DNA of 64,000 nt from Nymphaea colorata (Eukaryota), in assembly GCF_008831285.2 (NCBI RefSeq), contig NC_045138.2:8060001-8124000 (forward strand). Reading direction: 5' to 3'. Every line of letters begins with the position of its first letter. Position 1 is the stretch's first letter. The notes under the pieces are model-generated. The model saw only the letters and a list, made by a program, of their open reading frames with translations, was not told where the DNA came from and made no database searches. Shown here piece by piece: positions 14,065-61,037 of this stretch. The position numbers and the translations under genes are program-made.

Positions 14065-15678
14065 AGTGTTAGAAAGAGAAGGCGGGGACGTGCGAGAGAG
14101 GGGGGCAGCCCGTTCTGTTGCGGGTCTTCCTTAATTTATTCTATTTTATTTTACCTTGGGTTTGTCCGTTATGGGTGCCCTTCCTATTCAAAGAAAAAGT
14201 AACACAAAAAAGGAAAAAAGAGAAAGACGGGAAGGACGGAGCATGAAGGACTTGTCAAACCGAAACGAAGCCAAAGTTCCATTTAACATGATGAATTTGG
14301 GTGAGAGGCTGCCGGATTTTCCCTGATTCCATTCTCCAAGAGTTGCAGCAGCCTTAAGGTTTCTCTACTTTTCCGGTCGCCATGAACGGAAAGTGCAAGG
14401 AAGACTTCCGTGATGGGGGTTTTCAGCTTTCTTCTCTGTTGCTTTGATGGTCGACCGAGTCGTCCGAGGGTTTCACTGTTGTTCGATGGCAGAACAGAAA
14501 AAGGATGCATAAGACCTCAGGCCTTGTTTCTTTGCTGCTACAGTCTCTAGGAGAAGAGTATGTGTGCTGCACTCACTTGCATCTCGTGAGTTTTGATAAT
14601 AATCGGAAGAGCGACCGGATTTAGAACCCATCATTTTAATCTCATCCTGGCAGAAGCTATGAGGTGAAAGACAGCAATTATCAAAAAGGCTTGTATGGGC
14701 ACTTGGTTCGTGATAATTTCTGCTTGAATTAGCTTCCGTAGAACTCACAAGGAAAAGAAAGGAACTTGGGGATGAAGAAGAAGACGGGAACGAGGAGGAT
14801 GGATGAGATGGGGAGGTGGAACGAACACAATAAAGGGCAGAAATAGATGGAGAAATCACAGATGGAGAGTTAATTAGTGAATCTTACAAGGGAAAAACTA
14901 CCCAAATAACTGGGAATTGGTTAAGGATATGGAATGCACCATCATCGAGAAGATATTACAAGTATCTGTAACTCGTGGACATAATCTTCACTTTCATAAG
15001 TTTTCGTACCGTAATACATCGTGGTTATCGAGAGTCTGCTTCAAAGAGAAACTCATGCAACAGAAGGCCAAATTTCAAAAAGATACACAAGCCAAAGCTT
15101 TCAATTACCTTTTGTTTTGAAATAGACACCGGAAATTCTCTCTCAGATTGTCATTTGTTGGTGGAAAATTGAAGCAAGGAAGTTGGCATCTACCACTTTC
15201 CTCTAATGCAGCTCAGTTATTTGCTAAAAAACCTACAGTCTTTGGGATGCTCAAGAAACTTTCCGAGAGAGAGAGAGAGAGAGTTAAATTTTGGAAACTC
15301 TAGAAACAACCCATTGAAGAATAAAAGAAGCAATTTTTTCTTTTCTTCTTTTTTATTTTGAAAAACGCAGAAGACCATGAAAAAAACTATATTATCGTTC
15401 CAGAGATGAGGTGCAACCGCAACCACCGCATGAAGATCAAGCCAAGAGTCTTCTTCTCTTTCTTCTTCTGCTACCGCTGCTCTCCAATTCCTCCGACGGC
15501 AATCGATATCCGCTCGGGCATCAGAATTTCAGGGCAGGTAGGTAAGCAAATACATAATTCTAGATGTTTTACTTGCAGGAAAACAAAATAGGAGGAGCAA
15601 TCTCTGTACCGCGAGGATGGTGTTGCAGAAGTTGCAAGGCAGGTAGTAGACATGCTCACTTCCCATTTCCATCGACAT
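7556..15678 (-). CDS. YAB2: YABBY transcription factor, YAB2 clade, 184 aa; join(15678-15610,13988-13866,13442-13322,13012-12964,12751-12676,7672-7556)
   Basis: C2C2 zinc finger [14 protein letters not shown]...VTIRCGHC and YABBY domain [54 protein letters not shown]. All five introns are GT-AG and in phase (69+123+121+49+76+117=555 nt). The CGSSSS linker and the LEGNKQAK tail resemble YAB2; clade assignment is from memory of the family. Confidence 0.95.
8704..8962 (+). mobile_element. Possible degenerate SINE with an internal ~45-bp duplication (YABBY intron 5)
   Basis: A-box-like TAGCGCAGGTGG at ~8722. GGTGGCAGAAAGCTGCCCAGATGAGAATCAACGCACCTTCTTT occurs at ~8729 and ~8822. No clear B box. 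Confidence 0.3.
10764..10977 (-). mobile_element. tRNA-derived SINE, 214 bp, with 16-bp target-site duplication (YABBY intron 5)
   Basis: Perfect flanking direct repeat TGAGCTTGATCCATAT at 10748-10763 and 10978-10993. Minus strand has A-box TAGTATAGCTGG and degenerate B-box GGCTCTACTCC near its 5' end. Confidence 0.8.
12676..12751 (-). CDS. YAB2: YABBY exon 5 ([25 protein letters not shown])
   Basis: 76-nt exon; TCACAG| and |GTGAGT. Confidence 0.97.
12964..13012 (-). CDS. YAB2: YABBY exon 4 ([17 protein letters not shown])
   Basis: 49-nt exon; CCGCAG| and |GTGAGT. Confidence 0.97.
13322..13442 (-). CDS. YAB2: YABBY exon 3 (variable linker)
   Basis: Acceptor TTGCAG|, donor GGC|GTAATT; 121 nt, phase matches exon 4. 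Confidence 0.9.
13866..13988 (-). CDS. YAB2: YABBY exon 2 ([41 protein letters not shown])
   Basis: Acceptor AACAG|, donor CAG|GTAAG; second half of the zinc finger. Confidence 0.95.
14029..14061. repeat. (CT)n microsatellite near the 3' end of YABBY intron 1
   Basis: Direct reading. Confidence 0.9.
15610..15678 (-). CDS. YAB2: YABBY exon 1 ([23 protein letters not shown])
   Basis: ATG at 15678; donor GCG|GTACAG. Confidence 0.92.
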
Positions 15679-29271: not shown

Positions 29272-29735
29272 AGCGTTAGCTCATTATCTCACAAATATTT
29301 TATTATATTATACTTATGTTTAGTATTATCTCATACATCTATCCATTATCTCATAAATATTTTATTATCTCATAAACATTATCTCATACTTATTGTTTAA
29401 CGTTATTTCAAGCATCCGTCCATGATCTCACTATCTCATAATTTTTTTGTTATCTCATAAACAGTATCCCGTACTTATGTTGGCATTAGCTTGTACATTC
29501 GTCAATTTATTCTCATTATCTCATAAATATTTTATTATTTTATAAATATTATCTGATACTTATGTTTAGCGTTATCTCATCCATTCGTCCGTTATTTCAT
29601 TATCTCACAAAGCTTTTGTTATTTCATAAATATTATCTCATACTTATGTTTGGTGTTATCTCATACATTCATCAGTTCATTATTTTATCAATTTTTTTTA
29701 TTTTATAAACATTATCTCATACTTGTTTGTTATTG
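29272..29735. repeat. Minisatellite built on TTATCTCA(TA); ~6 degenerate higher-order units of ~60-85 bp
   Basis: About a dozen TTATCTCA cores; recurring unit ...ATTATCTCATAAATATTTT...ATTATCTCATACTTATGTTTAGCGTTATCTCAT..ATTCGTCC. Confidence 0.85.
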
Positions 29736-30780: not shown

Positions 30781-32004
30781 TAAACTAAAGAACAACTTCT
30801 TCTGTTGCAATGTATGGAGACTTTTTTTTATCTTCTCCATGAACTTGACGTGAGGCAAGAAGGATCGCTTAGGTCAAAATTATATGGATGTTTAAGTCTA
30901 GAGTGGAGGGTATAACCTTGCGTTGTGGGTTGCCCTTTGCCTCGTTGCCTTGTCGGATATTAAAGCAGCCTCGGACTGATCAACCATGTGCCGATGAAGG
31001 CCGGAAAGGAAACAGTGAGAAGGTAGTGATGGCCACTATTCTTCTCCTGTCATCTCTCTCTCACCGCCTCTTCTTCACATCAAGGCATATCTCTCTCTCT
31101 TTCTCTCTTCTGATAAGGACGACACAGTAATGCCAGCCTACATATCTAGATGGCCTGCAAGTTGAGTTTGAATACATGCACAATATAATATACATAATAC
31201 CATGCTTTATCGCCTATATATATATCCGTCAAAGCCATTGTCAACCATGGAAAAAGCTTGCCAATATCTCAAAATGAAACTCAAGCAATTATCAGGAGAA
31301 GGAAACTGAATCCTCAACCTATATAATTTGATAACATACATGAAACTCTTTCGAGTCGCTCTCTCCATGATGGCGATGCCAGCTTAATTTCCTTTGTTGC
31401 TTCTCACATCACACAATCAGTTCTGCGGGAAAAAGGCGAAGGTGGGAGTGGCTAATTAGCCACTTAGAGTCACTGTTCTGACCGACCGAGCCATGGCTGC
31501 CCTCTCCAGTCAATTGCCTGGTCCCGCACACCTGCCCGACCCCCTCCATTGATAAGGTTCCATCACCCCCAGCTGCCCCTCTGTAACAAAAAGACAAGGT
31601 CGTTCAACAGTACTTAGACGGCGACCTTGGGGTGAAGGAAGGAACTAGTCTGGGACCAATGAGTTGGTTCAGGCGGTCGTTCAGACCCATGCATTTATTG
31701 GCGTAAGATCGGAATCCGATCTGTTTGGGCTGGCATTTTTTAATGGGCCAAAACGACACATGAAAATTACTGTTTTAACTAAAGCATTCGTCCAAATATA
31801 TAGAGAAAGAGAGAGAGAGAGAGAGAAAGAGAAAGAGAGCCGATAAAATGGGAATATATAACAAAATTTGGGGACAAGAGGTCCCTTAAATACAAAAACA
31901 ATCCGCAAAGAACAAAATTACGCAAAAAACACAAGCAGGAGGAACAAATAAACAATACAATGCACAGAAAAATAGGAGAGAAGAGGAAAGACGAAACGAC
32001 ACAA

Positions 32005-35000
32005 TCACCCAACCGCAGTCAGGCGGCGGCGCTTTAACCGAATGGCGAACTGGATATCCCCTTGCACAAGACGAGCCACAGAATCTGGTGAAGAAAATGT
32101 GCCCCTGAAGACCCTGTTGTTGCGCTCCACCCAAATGCGCCACCAAGCTGAAATGAGCCACGGCCTCCAGACATGACCCCAGGAAGCAGTCAGGTGGGGG
32201 GGAAGGACTTACTAATAAGGGAAGGCCAAGTAGAAGCAAGGACACTAGAGCAAAAAGGGCAAGAAGTAAAAAGGTGGACCCGAGACTCAGTCGCAACAAG
32301 ACATAGGGGACACTGGTTAGCCAAACTGATGCCAAGGCGCTGTAGGTGATCAAAAGTGTTGATATGGCCAGTCAGAAGAAGCCAAACAAAAGCAATGGCT
32401 CGAGGAGAAGGGCCAGGAGACCAAAGAGACCGGGAGGAGTGACGCGACAGAGGGACCAAAGGAGGCCAGGTAGCAAGAAGAAAAAGTGAACTCACGGGTA
32501 GGTGAAAGGGGTCAGGATGGGGAAGTGAACGATGAGAGGTCAGCAAGGCGGAGAAAAAGAAGAAGGACAGAAAGCATGTCGGACCAAAAGTGAGAAGGGG
32601 AGATGTGAGATATAGAACTATGCCAGACGGTAGGGGAAGGCAGGTCGAATTTTGAACTAATGAATTGGGTGATGGGAGAATGTTCAGTAGCTAACCGCCA
32701 CCACCAAGAACACAGGGAAGACTCGCAAGCCCGACTAAGGTTGGTAACCCCAGCACCCCCAAGAAGACGCGGAAAGGCAACCACATCCCAATGCGCAAGG
32801 TGATCTGAAGGTCGATCACCATCCCAAACAAACTTACGAATAAGCTTATCAAACTTACGCAAGACAGCCACAGGAGGCCGAAAGACAGACAAAGCATGGA
32901 GAGGAACTGACGCAAGGCAGTGCTTAGCCAAAGTAATCCGACCTGGAAGAGAAAGCAGCTTTCCCTGCCAACACTGAAGGCGATCCGTAAGCTTCTGCTC
33001 CACCCCATTCCAAAAAGAAGGAGCAGGAGGCGACAACGTAATCTGAAGCCCCAGATAATCCATGGGCAGGCTAGTAGCCTTACACCCAAAGCAAGCTTCC
33101 GCGAGAAGTACCGTGGCCGGATCCGCGTGAATGAAGGAAAGGTGACACTTGGCGGAATTGATAGAAAGACCTGAGATGAGCTCAAAGACCCGAAGGATGA
33201 GCCACGTTCTCACAACCTGCTGGCGAGAAGCACTGCCGAACAGGAGAAAATCATCAGCATACTGAAGGGTGGAGAAGGACGGTAAGTGGGGGAGCGAATG
33301 GGGTGTGAGGAAGCCAACGACCGTTGCGTGATGGAAAAGCGCAGAAAAGCTCTCAGCAACAAAGTTGAAAAGCAAGGGCGATAACGGGCAACCTTGACGG
33401 AGGCCACGCTCGAGACAGAAGAAATCACCACACTTTCCATTGAAGGAAACCGCAAGCTGGGCCCCAGTGACAAGCGACATGATCCACTGCCTAAACGAAT
33501 GACCAAATGCAAGACGGGTGAGGAGGTCAGAAAGGAACTCTCAACTAACCGAGTCAAAAGCCTTAGAGATATCCAACTTCAAGATGAATGAAGGTAGCCG
33601 TAGACAGTAAAGGGAGTGAACAACCTCATTGGCTAGGACAACCGCATCCTGCAGACGCCGACCCTTGACGAAAGCAACCTGGAAGAGGTTAATGACTGAA
33701 GGCATGACAGGCGCAAGCCGCATAGAGAGCAACTTAGCAATAATCTTGTACGGCGTGCCAAGGATGGAGATCGGGCGAAAGTGGGTGACGTCCATAGGGT
33801 TAGGACGCTTAGGCACCAGGACGCAGGTAGCTTGATTGAATTCCTTGAGGAAAACAGAATTGGAGGCGAACTCATCACAAAACGCAAACACATCCGCGCT
33901 ACAAACCTCCCAAAAAGTACAAAAAAATTCGACTGGGAAACCATCAATGCCGGGCGCCTTACCCGAGCCAAGGGCCCAGACCGCGTTCTTGATCTCTTGG
34001 TGTTGGAAGGACCGCTCAAGAGCGATCGCACAAGAGACAGAGAGAGAGGAGAGGTGAAAATCCGGCAGCGTGGCACGGAAGCGAAGAGGTTTAGAGTAGA
34101 AATCCTTGAAATGAGCGCTCAGGGCCGGGAGGATGTCATCACCAAGAAAAATCCTGCCTCCGATACCCATGGACTGGAGCAACGTCTGACGGCGCCTCTG
34201 AGAGGCGGCCAAGTGGAAGAATCTAGAGTTCTGGTCCCCATGCGCGAGCCAACCCAGCCTAGAGCGTTGCTGCCAATGGATAGACTCCCTAATCCGCCAC
34301 TCCAGGGCAAGACACTGCAGACAAAGGAGACAAGAAGACTGATCCGCAGAAATATTATCAGAGGCCTGAAGGGACATGATCTCCTCATCCCAAACGACCA
34401 CATCCAAAAATTTGCTGCTCCAGAAAATGCGCTTCCAGGCGAGCGCCTCCCTCCTGATGGAGTGCAACTTCCGTGAGAGCCTGAAAGCAGCCCACCTACC
34501 ATTGACTGCACGAGCCCACCAATTAGGGACGGTAGCTACAAAGGATTCATCACGGAGCCACCAAATCTCAAAACGAAACCTGGCGTGCCCGATACCAGCC
34601 CTACCCCGAAGAAGGGAAAAGAGCAGCGGAGCATGATCGGACAAGTGCCTCGGGCCAAGAACCAAGGAGGATGAAGGAAAAGCAGAGAACAACTCAGGCG
34701 AGAGGAAGATACGGTCCAACCTACGATGGATCGGAGGGTTCCTATTATTAGACCAAGTAAACGTACCGTTAGTCGAAGGCACGTCAAAAAGACCAAACTC
34801 ATCAACGAAAGATCGAAAAGCAGACATAGACGGGCCAGAAGTGACAGGGGAGGAAGAGTCAGCAGGGCTAAGCAAACAGTTGAAGTCTCCGACCAGAAAC
34901 CAAGGGGAAGCTGCAAGCTGGCGAACCTGTTGCAGCTCAGCCCACAGTTGCCCACGCAAAGCCCCAACGCAAGGGCCATAAACCGCAGTAACCAAGACCG

Positions 35001-35298
35001 GACCATTAGGCCAAAATCCACTGAGAGAAGCAGAGATAGAGTACCTTTCGACATGCACAACAGCCCCCGTAAGGGGTGGAGACCAAGCCAGCAGGATGCC
35101 GCCCGCTGCTCCACAAGCTGGAAGGAACCCAAAGGACGGTTTGCGCAACAAAGTACGAACACAAGCATGAGAGATGACAGACATCTTGGTCTCAACCACA
35201 AAAAGCACCGAAGGCCCATGCTGACGGATCCAAGAAGAGAGATACCTACGCCGATAACGGGCACTGAAGCCCCGCACATTCCAACATGCAACCCTCAT
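32005..35298 (-). pseudogene. LINE ORF2 (endonuclease-reverse transcriptase), disrupted
   Basis: WNVRG, ETK, GDFN, RLDR and SDH (APE); KAPGIDG, FRPIS, KLDISKAFD, GLRQGCPLSP and QYADD (RT); CPLC...HLFTSC (zf-RVT); WWRIWVERNNRVF near the C-terminus. In-frame TGA at 33543-33541 (expected TGG) and two frameshifts near 32530 and 32200. No RNase H seen. Confidence 0.93.
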
Positions 35299-36760
35299 GG
35301 GGAAACCACGTGAAGCGACGAATGTCTGGCCGCCCTGGCGGCACCAGGAGGGAGGACGGAGGCTGCAGAAGCCCCAATCCTACGCAACTCCCACCGCAAC
35401 CTGGCCAGGCTGGAGCGGGAGACCGGTGCCACAGCGGCAGCAAAAGAGGAACACAACAAATCAAATTGCTCAGGCGAAAGAGAGACCTTAAGAGCGTCAA
35501 GCGCATCCGGGAGGGAGATGCCCAACTCAACATCCAACAAGGGGGCAACAGGTGGCAACCTATCGGGCAGGGAGTGACGACCCACAGGACTCGTGGTGGG
35601 GCCAGACAACTGAACAGGGGAGGACGATGGGGTAGAGGTGAACTCAGACTCAGACCGTAGGGCAGGGGAAAAAGAGCCAACATAAGGGATGCGGGAGAGG
35701 CCAGGGCTAACCGGTGGGAGAGGCAGGTAGGTGGGGTTTAGAGGCGAGCAGCGACTGAGTCTAGGGAGCAGAAAATGCAAGGAAGGCTAGTAAGAACTAA
35801 AGCTACTGTCAAAATAAACAGAAAAAACCCAAGGCAGATAGGCAAAGGAGGAGGTCCTGGGTGTAAGGGGGGGCATAGAGGGCCAGTAACCAAGGTAAAG
35901 AGCAACGTACAGGCAACGGAGGGAGAACGACTCACTGGGGGTGCCGAGACGCCAGAGGCCAAGACAACGCAGGCCGCAGTCAGACGAGAGCGAGCAACAA
36001 CAGCAGCCTCAAGGGGAAGACCCTCCGACGACGGGCGGGCAACCGAAAGAGACGGTGCGGACGACCGGACGTCGCCAAGGTCAGACTGAGCAGCAACCAG
36101 CAATGGGTCGGGGCAGCCCGAGGTGGACTCGCGTGGAGCCCCAGCTCGCAAAGCAGGAAAAGGAAAGGGCGAGCAGGGTACCTCAGAGGAGCATGGCAGA
36201 GAGCAGGCTAGACTCCTTCGCTGAGGAGAGGCTGGCGCCCGCGGTGAGGGAAGCAAGGGCGGAAGCTGAGAAGGCGGCAGCTCTACCACCGAAGAGCACT
36301 GGTGCGGCAGATCACCTGGCCTGAAAACCTGCGGAACCTGTACCGAAAAAGGAGGACCCCGCGTTCCAGGACAAGTAGGCCCAGGCCAAGGAAGTCTGAT
36401 AGAGCCAAAGAACATAGAGCTCTCGCCCAAAGAAGGTGACCGCTGAACAACTTGCGGAGGAACCTGGACCAAGAAGGAAGCAGTGACCGCTGCAAAACCA
36501 TGCCGTCGAGCAAAAAGGCGACGATCATTCTGACGAGCAGGAAAGCGACATCGAGAACACGTGACAGCCCGGCGGCCGTTCAAGGAAGCACACCTCTGAC
36601 ACCACCACTGGCCCCATCTGACGCGGATAGAAGCAACAGACCGGAGAAGGTGACGAAGCCTGGAAGCACGCCGAGAAGAGGGGACACACCACGGTGAGGG
36701 GGCTGGCCTACCAACGGAGACCACCTTGGGGAGCCTCGGCCGCAAGGAACAGTCGCCCAT
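35295..36760 (-). CDS. LINE ORF1, Pro/Ser/Arg-rich with RanBP2-type zinc finger; split into two frames (36760-35738 and 35786-35295)
   Basis: WWCQRCASLNGRRAVTCSRC fits W-x-C-x2-C-x3-N-x6-C-x2-C. The C-terminal ARLRWELRRIG resembles the RELxxL end motif of plant L1 ORF1s. The stop overlaps the ORF2 ATG (ATGA). Confidence 0.7.
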
Positions 36761-37599
36761 CTGCAGAAGGAGAAAACAACAACGCGCTGGCGAGAGGAAG
36801 GCCTGGAGGAGCCCGCGAGCATCTTTCAGCTGAAGTGTGCCGGCGAAAATGCAATTGAAGATAGTAGACTGCCAACTGAAAGACAATGCCTGCGATTAAC
36901 GAACCCCCTCAGGCGAGCAAAGAAAACCGATCGTCGCACGACAAAGCAAGCGATTAAGAGGGAAGGGGTTACCCGGCCTGATACCACAAAGACTAGGACC
37001 CCCAACCCAAACCCCCGAGGGCGGCCGCAAAGGCGGGGGAGGAGGAAGGGCTGCCATGACACCCCCCACAGTGCAAGAGTAAAGAAAAAAGGAACCTGTT
37101 TTCACACGCAATTCAACAAACAGTTACAGTGCACCTCGCTCAAGGTGTAGGGAGAGACGTCCCACGGCTTCAGCGCTCTCCAAGCGACAGAGAGGGCAGG
37201 GGGAAGAGCTGCATTGCTCGGGGAAAGGGGGGGACAATGCCGTGCGGCCCCAGACGGACGGCGAAGACGTGCGAGCCGGCGATGGGGGCAGACAGAGAGA
37301 AGGGCGGGCGGTGGGGCCGACGGGAGATAGAGAGGGCGAGTGGGGCCGGACGAGCGGGTGGTGGGGGCAGACGGAGAGACGGGTGGGCGGTGTGGTCGAC
37401 GGGAGAAAGAGAGAGCGAGTGGGGAGTAGGGGGAAGAGTTGGACGAGCAGGAGGACGGTCGGCGAGGACAGGCGGGCGAGAGAGGAGAGTGAGTGGTCGG
37501 GCGGGCGAGAGATGAGGGCGGTCGGGCGGCGAGGACGGGCGGTCGGTAGGCGAGGACGGGACGGGCGGCTTGGACGGGCGGGACGGGCGGGGCGGTCGG

Positions 37600-37639
<40 letters not shown>

Positions 37640-37698
37640 GAGAGAGAGAGAGAGAGACTTACATGCTCCGAGAGAAAGAGAAAGAGAGAGAGAGGAGA

Positions 37699-37966
37699 GA
37701 GAGAGTAAATTGAATGGTGACTCTGACTATCCCAAGCCAATTAGCTCACCTTTGAAGGTTACTTGATTTATCATCATAGACTATTGAGAAAAAAACAAGA
37801 AAACTATTGAGAAAAAAACAAGAAAAAATGATGGGTAATTTTGTTATATAGATTTCACAACTTTTCTTTTTTGTTTTTTATTTCAACCATCCATCACATT
37901 AGATCCGATGGTCTTCCTAACTGATTTGGGTGACTCTCAATAGTCATAATCATCATTCACTCTCTC
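37699..37966. mobile_element. Microsatellite-associated MITE next to the LINE 5' end
   Basis: Inverted ends GAGAGAGTAAATTGAATGGTGACTCTGACTAT / ATAGTCATAATCATCATTCACTCTCTC; internal tandem ACTATTGAGAAAAAAACAAGAAAA x2. Confidence 0.6.
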
Positions 37967-44620: not shown

Positions 44621-46336
44621 TATAGACATCCATGTTTTAGCCAAAACAGATTCAATTCAAGTCTATGAATCATGGAATTTCATAAATCCTATAATTAAAA
44701 AGTCCAAATGAGCTTACGGACCTTATCGAAAATCTCTTCTTGATTTCAACATGAAGAATGGATCCAGAGGTTGTCCAACATCTCCTATTTCTCAAAATCA
44801 ACAAACTAATGAAAGTCCAATTAAATTGTGCATGGAAAGGAAGATAGTGAAACGTGGATGAACATATCGTTCATTTTGTGAATGCATGCATACACTCACT
44901 CCACAAAAGCACTCAAGTACCTTAGCCAAAAACTTAAATGAGTCAAGTTAGAGTCACTACCATGACCAAATCATATTGTGACAAAGACATGAGTTCCTCA
45001 TTTACTTCAAGGCAAAAACATCAAAAATTTTAAAATCATTGCAAATTTGAGATTTTCAAAAAAGAAAATTCTCATGATGTCTGGACCTCCTATGAACCAA
45101 AATTGCCACAAAGAATCAATTTTTAATCCAAATCCACAAGTCATCCAAGGCCAAAATGAAAAATTTAAAATGCTCAGCCTGAACTCAATCGAAGGCTCTT
45201 ACAACCTAGTTTGAATGAAGCAACATTTCACAATTTTGGCTGGTTCTCAAAACCAAGGTTTCAAAATCAAGATTCCGGCCATTCAAATTGAGGTTCAAGC
45301 CTCAACCAAAAAAATTCCATATTTCCCAAGATCAAACCACCAGTCCTGACTTCTTCAAAAGCACTCAAGTACCCTAGCCAAAAACTTAAATGAGTCAAGT
45401 TAGAGTCACTACCATGACCAAATCATATTGTGACAAAGACATGAGTTCCTCATTTACTTCAAGGCAAAAACAACAAAAATTTGAAAATCATTGCAAATTT
45501 GAGATTTTCAAAAAAGAAAATTATCATGATGTCTGGACCTCCTATAAACCAAAATCGCCACAAAGAATCAATTTTTAATCCAAATCCACAAGTCATCCAA
45601 GGCCAAAATGAAAAATTTAAAATGCTCAGCCTGAACTCAATCAAAGGCTCTTACAACCTAGTTTGAATGAAGCAACATTTCACAGTTTTGGCTGGTTCTC
45701 AAAACCAAGGTTTCAAAATCAAGATTCCGGCCATTCAAATTGAGGTTCAAGCCTCAACCAAAAAAATTCCATATTTCCCAAGATCAAACCACCAGTCCTG
45801 ACTTCTTCAAAACTAATTTTTAAATTTTGGCCTTAAAAGAAAATCAAAATTTTGGTTCCATATCATAAGATTACTTCAAAAACAATTGTAAATTGGCCAA
45901 ATTTCAGTCATTCGGAGCCCCGATTTTTGACCTCCAAGAATTTCTCCAATCTAGTTCCAAATCCCAAATCTAAGCTATTTTCAAAATTGTAAATTGGCCA
46001 AATTTCGGCCATTCGAAGCCCAGATTTTCGACCTCTAAGATCCAATTCTCAACTCCAAAATTATAGTATCAAAACAACTTGCTAAACTTCAACTACCAGT
46101 TGCCAATTTCAGCTAAAATCTAATCTTCAATCCCAGAAGCAATTTATATAAACCACTGGAATTGAAAGCAAATTTCCGATCTAGTCTAGGCCAAGCTCCA
46201 ATTTTCAAACGAAGTCAAAATAATTTCAAGTACTTGCACAGGCATATTGGAGAAATAACTTGTCAAGCTTGAGAAAGCCTAGACTTTGGACCAATTACCC
46301 CTATTAAAGGTGGTAGGAATAGTCAGACCTTATACA
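44621..46336 (+). mobile_element. 3' part of a gypsy LTR, homologous to 62538-63760
   Basis: Collinear similarity by eye (e.g. GAGTCACTACCATGACCAA, TTTCAAAATCAAGATTC, CAAGCTTGAGAAA.CCTAGAC); truncated on both sides. Confidence 0.75.
44904..45812. repeat. 452-bp near-perfect tandem duplication
   Basis: Units 44904-45355 and 45356-45807 with CAAAA microhomology at the junctions; single copy in the homologous region at ~62822-63270. Confidence 0.95.
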
Positions 46337-56106: not shown

Positions 56107-56578
56107 TGTAAAAAGATATCTAAAAGAAGAGTATTTTTCTCACTTGAATAAATTACAACGAGTTGATACAAATATATATACAGAAAAGATCCACAATTCG
56201 TGGAATGAATAAAGGAAAGAAAAACTGCCGTATCTCCCTTTAGGTGATTTCAGCAATTTCAGCATTATCAACATCTTTAATGATTTTCAGCATATTCCTA
56301 AAATCACTTCTTGCTGAGACATTCTTTTTATGTCACCATTCTTAACGTCTCCAGCAATTTCCTTATTTTCCAGCTCGTGCTTATCTTTGTTGTCATCATC
56401 CTTAATGTCTTGAGCAATCTCGTTCTTAAATTCTCATCTTTCTGGGATGTTTTTATCTTTAACGTTTCCAGCTAATTTATTCTTATCAAGAAACGTTATT
56501 GCTGAGGTGCTCTGCCCTTTAACGTTTTTCTCAACGTCTTCAACTGATTTTATGGCTCTCACAGATTTACTCTTATCA
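56107..56578 (-). repeat. Copia 3' LTR (472 bp)
   Basis: About 22 substitutions and 2 small indels versus the 5' LTR by manual count (~95% identity). Confidence 0.97.
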
Positions 56579-59500
56579 TGCCCCCTCAAACTGGGTGGTG
56601 GGTGAACAATGCCCAGTTTGCATCTGAGATATTCAGTGGCAGATCGAAATAATGCTTTTGTAAAGATATGAGCAACTTGCTGAGAGGAAGGAACATATTG
56701 AGTAATTAAGGTCCCTAACACCACCTTCTCTCGTAAGAAATGATAATCGATGGCAATATGTTTCATTCTGGAGTGAAACACTGGCTTAATGCTAACTTGT
56801 AAGGCAGACATATTGTCAAAGTATAGCTGTGGAGGATCCGTTATACGGATGCCAATATCTTTGAGGATGAAGGAAAGCCATGTTAACTCAACTGCTACAG
56901 ATGCCATCGATCTATATTCTACTTCAGTTGCAGATCGAGTGACCGTTGGTTGCTTTTTAGCTGTCCACGAAATAGCATTCGTGTCGATGAATGTGCAAAA
57001 GCCAGTTGTGGATCATCGTGTCTCTTGATGCCCAGCCCAATCTGAATCAGAGTAAGCATGGAATCGAAAAACTGACTGGGGTGAAAGTAGACAACCAAGT
57101 TCTATGGTCCCATGAATATATCGAAGAATTCTTTTGACAAGCATAAACTGACTAACGAAATTCACACTATACGTGACATCAGGACATGTGAACGTGAGAT
57201 ACTGAAGGCCACCAACTAGGCTGCGATAGAGTGTAGGGTTAACAAATGGTGGATCTTCAGGAGGTGCCCAAAAATTCTGAACTAGAGGAGTAACAGCTGG
57301 TTTACAAGTTGTTAGTGCAGCATGTTCCAAGAGACTGTATGCATCTCTTTTGATTGAGAAAGAGACCTTGAGATGTTTGGAGAGCCTCAATACCAAGGAA
57401 GTGATGTAAACTTCTTAAGTCATTCATCAAAAACTCATGGTTAAGTTCAGTAATAAATTCTTGAATGAAATGAGTATTGTTGCCGGTCAAGATTATGTCA
57501 TCAACATATAATAACAAAATGATGGTTCCCTTGCTATGATGGCAGATATATAGAGACGAATCTAAGATGCTGCTAAAAAAACCTTTGGAAAGTAGAAAGA
57601 ATCTGAATTTATCATACCATGCCCTTGGAGATTGCCAAAGTTCATAGAGAGCTTTGTGTAGTCAGCATACATGATCTGGTTTGGTGGGGTCTTCAAAACC
57701 TTGTAGCTGTTCGACATAAACAGTCTCTTGTAACTCACCATGTAGAAATGCATTTTTGACATCGAGTTGCCTAATATCCCAATTTCGAGATAAAGCGATA
57801 GTCAACACAATGCGAATGGTGGCTGGTTTGATGACTGGTGAGAAAGTTTCCATAGAAAGAATCTGAATTTATCATACCATGCCCTTGGAGATTGCCAAAG
57901 TTCATAGAGAGCTTTGTGTAGTCAGCATACATGATCTGGTTTGGTGGGGTCTTCAAAACCTTGTGGCTGTTCGACATAAACAGTCTCTTGTAACTCACCA
58001 TGTAGAAATACATTTTTGACATCGAGTTGCCTAATATCCCAATTTCGAGATAAAGCGATAGTCAACACAATGCGAATGGTGGCTGGTTTGATGACTGGTG
58101 AGAAAGTTTCCATAAAGTCAATCCCTGGAATTTGGTTGAACCCATGAGCCACTAGATGATCTTTTAGTTGATCTAACGTTCCATCGCTTTTCAGCTTGGT
58201 CTTGAACACCCATCTGGTGGAGATGACATTCATATATGCAGTTTGGGGTGTTAGAGTCCATGTTTTGCACAAATTCAATGCTTCTATTTCTTCCTCCATG
58301 GCTTTTACCCATCCTGAATGTTTGAATGCCTCTTTGACTGTTTTAGGTTCCAAAGGAACTGGGAGAGCAAGGAAGTACTTTGGATTTGGCTTGATTATGC
58401 CATCCTTTGCCCTAGTGATCATGGAATGTGAGTTGATAGGAGTTGGTAACTACACATCGGATTGAGAATGAGGCATGAAATCCATGAGAGATGGCTCGAT
58501 GACCTGTTGAGAGCTGCTAGCATCTGTAAAATGAGAAGTGTTAGTGTCTGTAGCAAATGAGGAATTGCTGCTTGAAGAGGAGTCACGGTTGTCGTTGTGG
58601 CAACGGGTTCTAATGGAGCCATTATCAATTTCATCAATACAGCCAGACTTAGAAATTTCCTCAACTGACTGGTTATCGCCAATCCACTCGTTGTAGGTGT
58701 CGCCTTATTGAGAATAAGGCATTGCTGTAAATAAATTACCAGGTTGTTGAAAAGGAAATGTATTTTCATCAAAAACTACATTTCTGGATATAAAAATCTG
58801 ACTTGTTGGTGGATATAAACATTTATATTCTTTATGCGTTGAGTTATACCCTATAAAAACATAGGTTAAAGATCTAGGCTCCAACTTATTCTTGGAATAA
58901 TCTCGAAGGTATGGAAAACATCAGCTTCCAAAAACTCTCATGCAGCCATAATCTGGGTTCTTCTTGAATACAAGCTGAAATGGACTTTTCATTTTAAGCA
59001 TAGGTGTGGGCAGCCGATTGATTAACTATACCGTTGTAGAGAATGCTTCAACCCAAAATTTCACTGGCTTGCTGGCATGAAACATCATAGCAAGTTCGAG
59101 TTCAACTATAGTTTGATGTCTGCGTTTGACCATGCCATTCTAAGGAGGAGTTTTAGGACACACTTTTAAGTGTTGGATTCCATATTCTCACAAGTATGAA
59201 GCAAGCATATTACTATTAAATTCGCCGCCTTCATCGGTTTGAAGAATTTTGACTCTCTTCCCAAATTGATTTTCCACAAACTTGTGAAAAATTTTAAAAA
59301 TATCACAAAATTTGGACTTGAAGTGCATTGGATAAAACCAAATAAAATGAGTGGATTCATCAACGAATACAGCATAATACTTATATTGTTGAGATCCGAT
59401 GATTGGGGAAAGTCCTCATAGATCACAATGCACATGACCAAGGAATTCATCACAATGAATTCATCACAATGTTCTTTAATAGAAAGATATGGAAGATAAC

Positions 59501-61037
59501 ATGACTTAGCTAATTGACAACTGGAACATAAAATTCTGCTTCGAGATGGGCCAAGAATTCTAATGGCCTTTTTATTGACCAAAAACTCTACTACCTGCTG
59601 GTTGATGTGACCAAGGCAATGATGCCAAACTTCCTTATTTGCTCCACGAAATCTAACTAAGAAAAAAGCCTTGTGATCTCCTTAATTTTTTGACGTTGCT
59701 CTTACATTCTCCAGCATATAAAGTCCATCATGTTCGGTTCCAGATGCCACAATCTGTTGATTCCTCTTGTCCTTTACAAGAAAACCATTAGCAGAAAATT
59801 TAAAAATATATGACACGTCTGCTGTTAGTTGACTCACTGAAATTAAATTCTTTTTAATTTCTGGAACCGCTAAAACATTCTTGAGCCAAATAGAATTATG
59901 CCCATAGTTAATAATGGTATTGCTCACATGCATAATGTCAAGTTTCTGACCATTGCCTACCATTATTTTTTCTGATCCATAATATTTAGTGGAGACATTG
60001 AGATTACCTGCTTCAGATGGAACGTGGGCAGATGCTCCAGTATCTGGGAACCATTGTTGGTCCTGACCATCTGCTATCTTCATTGCAGCTAGTGCTTGAG
60101 GTACTTGTTTGGGCTGGAACATTTGATTAAAACGATGCCAGTAGTTAAGTGCAGAATGGTTTCTCTTTCTACAAATTTGGCACACGACTCCCTTTTGAGA
60201 GGAATCAAATTGATTATGATTCTCTCTTTTGTCGTTGTTAAAAGGAATACCTTGGCTGGCTTGGCGAAACTCTCGTTCCTTAGAATTGAACATCTGATTT
60301 TTATGTCCCCTATACCTTGGATTTTGAACACGCTGGTTCATAAAAGCCACCTGCGTGCCTAAAACATCTCCATACATACTTCTTACCGTCTCATGACTTT
60401 TAAGCAAGGCAATAACTTCCAAGTATGGTGGAGTTGGAGGACACATATAAGTCGTTCTAAAAGACTCATATTCTGGTTTGAGACCAATCAATAACCAAAA
60501 CACTTTAGATTGATCTGCAACTAGTTTTCCAATGATAGCAAGTTCATCACATATAATTTTGAAATTTTTGGTATATTCAGCAATACTTAGATTGCCTTTC
60601 GGATTCATCTGAAGCTTTTGCATAAGGAGCATTTCTCGCTCCTGTGACTCATAAGCAAATCTTCGATTTAAAGTATCACATACATGTTTAGAGGTTTTCA
60701 GGCCAACTACTAGCCCTAATATTTCTTCTGATAGGGTTCCTATGATCCATCCACGCAGCAACCGATCTGATCTTTGTCATGCGCTAAAGTCCAGATTCAC
60801 ACTTTGTTCAACTGCAGCAATATTCCCTGCGTTCTGACTGTTGCTAGGGAGATATCTATCAGCCATGGGCCATCGATAAAACCTGACATATCCTGACTTT
60901 CGATTAATCCTAGCACCTGCGTCTGCCATAAGAGAAAATTGGACTGGGTCAATTTGATGGAAACAAAATTGGCAACGTTCAGGTTGAAAGGATATGGGTA
61001 TTTGAGTGAAGCAGTCTACGAATTTTTGTGAGGCCAT
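56434..61037 (-). pseudogene. Copia gag-pol polyprotein, disrupted
   Basis: KLTQSNFLLW (gag N-terminus), CQICRKRNHSALNY (decayed zinc knuckle), WFPDTGASAH (protease), [64 protein letters not shown]. Multiple stops and frameshifts. Confidence 0.95.
57593..58112. repeat. 260-bp tandem duplication inside the copia RT
   Basis: Units 57593-57852 and 57853-58112 differ at 2 positions by manual comparison. Confidence 0.95.

Follow-up and report, generated by a model that had tools for sequence, protein, structure and literature searches.

A LINE in the 64-kb stretch of Nymphaea colorata DNA analysed here (the whole of which we call the window) belongs to a family whose copies end in ...TTTTATCGG followed by (CT)n, not by poly(A). 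Our preferred reading, to which we give a probability of roughly 0.55, is that the family likely inserts into CT/GA microsatellites by means of a read-through (CU)n tail on its RNA, which would pair with the nicked GA strand of the target.

The LINE and its junction with a CT microsatellite

The LINE is 5,830 bp long, runs on the minus strand from 37669 to 31840 and is near full-length. It is dead, and belongs to a Nymphaea-type family of plant L1s that exists in multiple copies. Its parts and flanks are listed in Table 1.

Table 1. Parts of the LINE and of its insertion site, in window coordinates
Feature	Coordinates	Strand	Remark
GA/CT microsatellite outside the 3' copy of the target-site duplication (TSD), 19 bp, downstream of the duplication and hence host sequence	31802..31820
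TSD, 3' copy, 19 bp, two interruptions; first 6 letters (element strand) possibly RNA-templated	31821..31839
3' UTR, 165 nt, T-rich, ends ...TTTTATCGG, no poly(A)	31840..32004	-
Terminal box common to the family, by summed contig depth	31840..31886	-
Predicted 5-bp hairpin GGGAC-CUCUU-GUCCC	31871..31885	-
ORF2: APE endonuclease, reverse transcriptase, zf-RVT; broken	32005..35298	-
ORF1, ~585 codons, broken; stop overlaps ORF2 start (ATGA)	35295..37056	-
C4 zinc finger in ORF1, fits RanBP2-type pattern	36548..36607	-	weak structure-bank matches only
5' UTR, GC-rich and pyrimidine-rich, begins GGACCGACC right after the inner CT tract	37057..37602	-
Second CT tract, 55 bp, inside the duplicated boundaries	37603..37657	-
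12 non-repeat letters, the 5' end of the insertion; single occurrence in window	37658..37669	-
TSD, 5' copy, identical to 3' copy	37670..37688
GA/CT microsatellite outside the 5' TSD copy, 17 bp	37689..37705

Read on the minus strand, the 3' terminus at 31840 is ...TTTTATCGG, or in longer form ...CCCATTTTATCGG, and it is directly abutted by CTCTCTTTCTCTTTCTCTC (31839-31821). No A-run is present at this junction (31840/31839), as expected from the original prediction that the LINE lacks poly(A) and is joined directly to (CT)n. The prediction also described a 19-bp TSD carrying interruptions at both ends, and this too was found: an identical 19-mer with two interruptions lies at 31821-31839 and at 37670-37688, and occurs exactly twice in the 64-kb window, while the 20-mer occurs once. 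Suffix/prefix matches between the 5' and 3' flanks have lengths of 1, 3, 5 and 19 only; an alternative 5' boundary at 37602 was rejected, the flank match there being just 5 letters. In simulations with two independent imperfect (CT)20 tracts (200,000 trials, repeated at three interruption rates), a match of at least 19 letters with at least 2 interruptions arose with a chance of ~0.003 at each rate. One qualification applies to the length of the duplication. On the element strand the 3' copy opens with 6 letters of pure CT, which may have been templated by RNA, so that the true duplication is 13-19 bp.

The CT repeat extends outside the duplication at both ends, by 19 bp past the 3' copy and by 17 bp past the 5' copy, and the target before insertion was therefore likely an imperfect microsatellite of ~55 bp. 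Such sequence is scarce in the surroundings: outside the element, 0.25% of the window lies in GA/CT tracts of at least 28 bp, and 0.12% of positions are the start of a CTCTCT. These flanks bear on a different explanation of the junction, that the (CT)n is a tail borne by the element and lengthened by slippage, like the (TTG)n of plant RTEs, while insertion is nonspecific and met a CT tract by luck or weak microhomology. Microsatellite tails do occur in other LINE clades and in algal L1s (PMC3472496, Table 1). However, a tail can supply neither the CT downstream of the duplication nor that upstream of it, and here the interruptions are themselves duplicated. We consider this explanation quite improbable, and return to it below with the contigs of other copies.

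No second copy of the family was found within the 64-kb window. Two look-alikes of the family end, at 1605-1628 (a GA tract and then a motif of vague resemblance) and at 15265-15283 (a CT tract, then GG), were judged by eye and set aside, there being no element sequence adjoining either. A contig of 375 letters from run X5 matches the left flank of the LINE at 31662-31788 and then runs on for 251 letters; it may represent an empty allele. Elsewhere the window holds a broken copia-type LTR element (56434-60776, minus strand; gag, pol beta-barrel, pre-integrase and RVT_2 matches) that contains a 260-bp tandem duplication (57593-58114, 99% alike), a 452-bp tandem duplication (44904-45812, 98% alike) and a degenerate 85-bp tandem array (29283-29724, ~4.6 copies) rich in TTATCTCA.

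Coding regions, 5' end and base composition

ORF2 matches, in order, an N-terminal APE endonuclease (PF03372, E 1.3e-18), reverse transcriptase (PF00078, E 9.5e-16 and 1.6e-10) and a C-terminal zf-RVT (PF13966, E 1.9e-12), with catalytic motifs present; the Pfam search gave no RNase H match in it. The reading frame is broken by a stop at 33543-33541 and by frame changes near 32510 and 32210, and that of ORF1 by a stop at 36898-36896 and a frame change near 35882. The ORF1 stop and the ORF2 start overlap as ATGA (35295-35298, minus strand), a layout that suggests termination-reinitiation.

Named plant L1 subclades have an ORF1 with DUF4283 and a CCHC knuckle, or with an RRM. No significant Pfam match, to these or to any other domain, was obtained for ORF1 in 12 window frames and 3 N. 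thermarum proteins, and thus we do not place the family in any named plant L1 subclade. A protein-atlas search with ORF1 returned nothing usable; its only homologues found are 4 proteins of N. thermarum, at 81-87%. The C4 finger of ORF1, which fits the pattern of the RanBP2 type, is retained in proteins P0187 and P0188. Against the structure bank it gave weak matches to the fingers of RBM5, RBM10, ZRANB2, RanBP2 and NZF (E 0.12-1.7), and two C1-type matches scored slightly higher (E 0.03).

The 5' end of the LINE consists of the 12 non-repeat letters, the 55-bp CT tract, GG and the GC-rich 5' UTR, in that order, and its inner layout of CT then GG mirrors the outer pattern at the 3' junction. 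The inner CT tract may be the donor copy's own target carried along (5' transduction) or, just as well, a constant component of the 5' UTR. The LINE as a whole is ~55% GC inside a region of ~36% GC.

A long-branched lineage of land-plant L1s

In a protein search with the reverse transcriptase (RT) region, which scored only 7,984 candidates, 35 of the 120 listed proteins were from Nymphaea (34 N. thermarum, 1 N. colorata), at 66-100% identity to the query P0001; the best non-Nymphaea protein among the matches listed reached 40%. A quick maximum-likelihood RT tree (76 of 78 chosen rows, midpoint root) united the 8 Nymphaea-type rows as a clade with support 100 on a long branch of 1.06. This clade groups with 57 plant-type L1 rows (SH-aLRT 99) and falls outside them (support 89), and 11 further rows, one of them human-L1-like, are set apart as the outgroup. 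A FastTree analysis of 138 rows had the same overall shape, with lower support values (0.909 and 0.46).

Judged by its proteins, then, the family is a long-branched land-plant L1 lineage. It has the features of that group in its APE+RT+zf-RVT ORF2, its RT grouping, its two ORFs and its TSD, although not in a poly(A) end. The plant RTE clade does not accommodate it, given its two ORFs, its zf-RVT, its grouping with L1 proteins and the lack of a (TTG)n tail. The land-plant L1s without RNase H (such as the poly(A)-ending families of PMC3472496; proteins P0009-P0034, P0100-P0186) share with it the domain composition of ORF2, 30-40% RT identity and a T-rich 3' UTR. In contrast to them, the Nymphaea family lacks poly(A), has 3' ends that run into (CT)n and sits on its long branch; its ORF1 carries a C4 finger and matches none of DUF4283, RRM or CCHC; and A makes up 14% of the ORF2 sense strand (32191-35298, minus strand), against 21-32% in all 52 related plant L1 loci described below.

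Tx1 is described as an animal clade, whereas the nearest named non-Nymphaea proteins of the window LINE are all plant L1s. The label 'Transposon TX1' carried by N. thermarum proteins is the source's own name. One N. thermarum gene model, P0003, is labelled R-linalool synthase and has terpene-synthase domains fused to the family with the CT junction, which suggests a LINE copy in or beside a terpene synthase gene.

Related plant L1s end in poly(A)

For comparison we used 80 related loci from metagenome contigs, of which 52 had a C-terminal match; 9 of these were dropped as too short after the stop, leaving 43 with at least 300 nt after the estimated stop. A7 was present within 360 nt of the stop in 28 of the 43, where shuffled sequences would give 1.6; with the limit set at 1 kb, 38 have an A-run. 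None of the 43 had a CT terminus. (CT)4 was seen internally, upstream of the A-run, in two loci, and (CT)5 after the A-run in one. Two loci (L004 and L049) carry TATATTCCATTTT, a motif much like the end of the Nymphaea LINE, and then continue into poly(A).

These counts agree with the original prediction's premise that plant L1s normally end in poly(A), as does Table 1 of Ohshima (PMC3472496), in which 224 of 233 flowering-plant L1 families have (A)n, none has another repeat and 9 have no tail. Poly(A) endings of plant L1s also appear in the consulted part of PMC3747384.

The CT junction recurs across the family

If the CT junction is a property of the family, CT should continue past the 3' end of other copies, as the original prediction would have it. 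Sequencing-run contigs from two organisms (runs X1 and X10) were mapped onto window positions 31828-31887, which include 12 letters of flank. It is important to note that contig depth is not copy count, and that the mapping tool regards rows at repeats as often false. An earlier depth mapping on 31450-32250 had skipped 31792-31843, dropping 19 loose-end rows, so its scope did not take in the junction letters.

Summed contig depth in the bin 31855-31881 was 18,518-42,077 (runs X1, X2 and X5), against 388-2,447 in the bin 31909-31935. Further towards the junction, the summed depth in run X1 was 57,675 at 31844-45, 43,121 at 31840-41, 35,005 at 31838-39, 20,155 at 31834-35 and 10,390 at 31828-29; relative to 31844-45, the last three are 61%, 35% and 18%. 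Run X10, from the other organism, gave 77% (31840-41), 62% (31838-39), 40% (31834-35) and 20% (31828-29) on the same scale. In both runs the depth declines smoothly over the LINE end with no collapse at 31840, and six letters into the CT of the 3' flanks it persists at 35-40% of terminal depth, a proportion of depth and not of copies. The X1 values at 31838-39, 31834-35 and 31828-29 are 997, 574 and 296 times the single-copy depth of the flank (35.1).

Position 31834 is the first at which a pure repeat mismatches the window copy, and among contigs with loose ends before it the consensus finishes in (GA)n (X1: 18 contigs, agreement 0.49; X10: 7 contigs, agreement 0.62). No poly(T) was seen among the 14 loose-end rows listed, beyond which there are 48 more. 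Four of the eight X1 records listed extend over 11 or 12 of the 12 letters of flank. They show 6-8 differences in 58-60 letters and run on for 633-2,366 letters at depth 24.7-31.9, which marks them as other loci. CT thus continues, as predicted, in contigs of two organisms, and we regard a family-wide CT junction as very probable. A minority of copies with poly(A) is possible, since such copies would collapse into few contigs and since the largest depth drop in X1 (10,634, with neighbours of 8,116 and 3,920) falls at the terminal GG; X10 has no such excess.

That the family truly targets pre-existing CT tracts is a stronger statement, and one that we hold to be probable. Ten X1 contigs diverge after ~4 flank letters, as would be expected from a short target and equally from a short tail carried by the element. 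Divergence of some copies after ~4-6 CT letters, together with a 5' junction known from the window copy alone, favours the idea of a slippage-lengthened tail. Long tracts break contigs, however, so the contigs with long unique flanks are likely biased towards short tracts.

It could also be argued that the association is passive or an artefact: copies may preferentially survive or be assembled in microsatellites, the 19-mer may already have been duplicated, or recombination between CT tracts may have removed the poly(A). Passive accumulation has been proposed for Drosophila Waldo-A/B (in the portion of the review PMC3812793 available to us), and the window copy's own junction is covered in no sequencing run, the repeat having been skipped. 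But the register, GG then CTCTCT, is constant over many contigs and two organisms, and neither survival bias nor recombination would fix a register. The left flank of the LINE, moreover, is matched at single-copy depth by one X1 contig over 342 letters with zero differences. We therefore give such accounts very little credence.

Many contigs join the terminal box to sites 100-250 nt upstream, with other letters between (31871-32132), and it is likely that subfamilies share the terminal box and differ in the middle of the 3' UTR. Scans of metagenome, genome and viral contigs with a terminal-box pattern gave no match.

Transcripts run into the CT tract

We sampled ~6% of two raw RNA runs, X21 and X22, for reads over the junction. 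All 12 flank letters are crossed by 9 of 18 reads in X21 and by 3 of 5 in X22. The other nine X21 reads stop at 31838-31843, the letters past that being unseen, and all five X22 reads reach 31834. Most of the junction reads are pairs with the first mate on the plus strand, which in most stranded libraries corresponds to the sense strand of the LINE. The X21 reads share several variants, and may therefore stem from one locus or subfamily and possibly from passive read-through. RNA with a (CU)n extension exists, as a few reads show; we propose a role for it as the template of transposition.

How the insertion site may be chosen

In the geometry of target-primed reverse transcription, the primer at this site would be the GA strand, nicked at G^A and ending ...GAGAG-3'OH. 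We propose the following course of events. The endonuclease would nick the GA strand, here at G^A, and the freed ...GAGAG-3'OH would pair with the CUCUC just behind the terminal GG of the RNA. The (CU)n tail would come from read-through into the donor's own flank, the simplest partner for an element without poly(A). The conserved terminal box and its hairpin might hold the ORF2 protein (ORF2p), so that copying begins near GG, and a second nick 13-19 bp away would yield the duplication. As each new copy would land in CT, its transcript would again carry a guide tail, and the preference would be self-perpetuating.

The pairing partners of other elements include rDNA read-through for R1Bm and TAA repeats for the I factor; that of the Nymphaea LINE would, in our proposal, be (CU)n/(GA)n. 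The step itself, pairing of the RNA 3' end with the nicked target, is the same one described for R1Bm, the I factor, R2Ol and human L1 (PMC6007223, PMC3649969, as far as consulted). The poly(A) of human L1 has been shown to pair with T-tracts in priming, by a 'snap-velcro' mode (PMC3649969), and the consulted text of PMC6007223 cites target pairing for the I factor, R1Bm and R2Ol as well as stating that R2Bm does not need it.

The main alternative is that CT/GA tracts are targeted but that the endonuclease alone chooses them, with ORF2p gripping the 3' stem-loop and starting at GG without any RNA-DNA pairing. Several observations suit this account. The junction is precise, no part of the 3' UTR is better shared than its terminal ~45 nt, and the hairpin has a UCU loop as in the stringent monocot L1 lineage (PMC3472496, in the part consulted). 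The majority letter at 31886 (14,337 of 15,569 depth in X1) would extend the stem to 6 bp, and X21 reads carry a stem-preserving pair of changes from G-C to A-U (10 of 11 at 31873, 9 of 9 at 31883). The sections of PMC4494074 and PMC3812793 that we consulted credit target choice to the endonuclease. Starting without pairing is proposed for Kibi and shown for R2Bm.

Against this, shuffled sequences match the RNA hairpin in stability (folding z-score -0.38), the RNA does run into CU, and the hairpin loop of the endonuclease is of ordinary plant-L1 sequence and does not differ in length from that of most relatives of the poly(A) type. Ser202 of human L1 has a role in its endonuclease. At the corresponding position Arg is found in all 11 Nymphaea proteins in which the loop could be located (16 tried), a substitution that could have changed nicking specificity and so would speak for the endonuclease. 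The position varies elsewhere, however, with 13 S, 3 E, 3 T, 1 Q and 1 R among the 21 of 35 other proteins with a readable loop.

The original prediction left the inference between CT/GA pairing and a specific endonuclease. The RNA reads that cross the junction and the ordinary length of the endonuclease loop make us lean towards pairing, and the choice between the two is not decided. If pairing could start at any point of a (CU)n tail, extra CT units might be gained, and the window copy has none beyond 0-6 letters, which counts against pairing. On balance, pairing as the main guide of site choice is somewhat favoured, and we think it rather unlikely that the endonuclease acts alone; pairing and choice by the endonuclease could also act jointly.

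Comparison with known LINEs

Kibi is a Tx1-clade element of teleost fish, of which Kojima and Fujiwara (2004) is reportedly the primary paper. Like the Nymphaea LINE, it is an APE-type non-LTR element found in a (TC)n microsatellite, and Koshi and the crocodilian Tx1 elements have (TTC)n, (TTCC)n and (TTTC)n as targets (PMC4494074, PMC3812793, in the parts consulted). The microsatellite-specific LINEs treated in those parts of the two reviews are all from animals, in keeping with the original prediction's remark that such LINEs are known there. PMC4494074 sets a threshold of >20% of flanks for microsatellite targeting, in the section consulted. The tree groups the Nymphaea family with land-plant L1s, so its likeness to Kibi, Koshi and Waldo is likely convergence, with the proviso that neither tree (76 or 138 rows) contained a labelled Tx1 protein.

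Among plant elements, the stringent monocot L1 lineage (LINE1-1_ZM) likewise has a conserved end of ~45 nt, and UCU in the loop of its hairpin (consulted part of PMC3472496). It differs from the Nymphaea LINE, in which the CGAG flanking motif is absent and hairpin stability does not exceed that of shuffles. Sampled relatives with a similar 3' hairpin retain poly(A). Plant RTE LINEs with (TTG)n or (TTGATG)n tails resemble the Nymphaea LINE in that the 3' end of a plant LINE meets microsatellite-like sequence (PMC3472496, PMC6007223, in part), yet their repeats are tails of the element, whereas the Nymphaea tract reaches past the TSD at either end and the protein clusters with L1.

Implications

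The microsatellite-targeting habit has been described for fish elements, and we did not find it described for flowering plants. In the open literature, searched at abstract level and outside subscription journals, Repbase and Dfam, we found neither a plant L1 with a CT/GA target nor a description of the Nymphaea family; the 9 tail-less families in the table of PMC3472496 could include a similar case. The mechanism of microsatellite-targeting LINEs is called not well understood in the portion of PMC3812793 consulted. If our reading is true, a plant L1 that swapped poly(A)/T priming for CT/GA priming would represent an independent origin of such specificity, and would make it possible to test cleanly which of the two, RNA tail or endonuclease, selects the site.

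A broader picture can be offered tentatively, and we think it more doubtful than the reading above. In it, a deep-branching water-lily L1 is a target-specific flowering-plant LINE whose ORF1 is of a distinct kind and contains a RanBP2-type finger. It would have dropped poly(A) entirely and would use as its guide tail the (CT)n at the place where it inserted; the inner 5' CT tract would be the donor's target, so that CT-rich host promoters drive the LINE. Plant 5' non-coding regions are rich in CT/GA repeats relative to other sequence (PMC1781443, as far as consulted), and such a LINE could therefore reshape promoters. If true, shared flanks would also be expected beside many CT microsatellite markers in water lilies.
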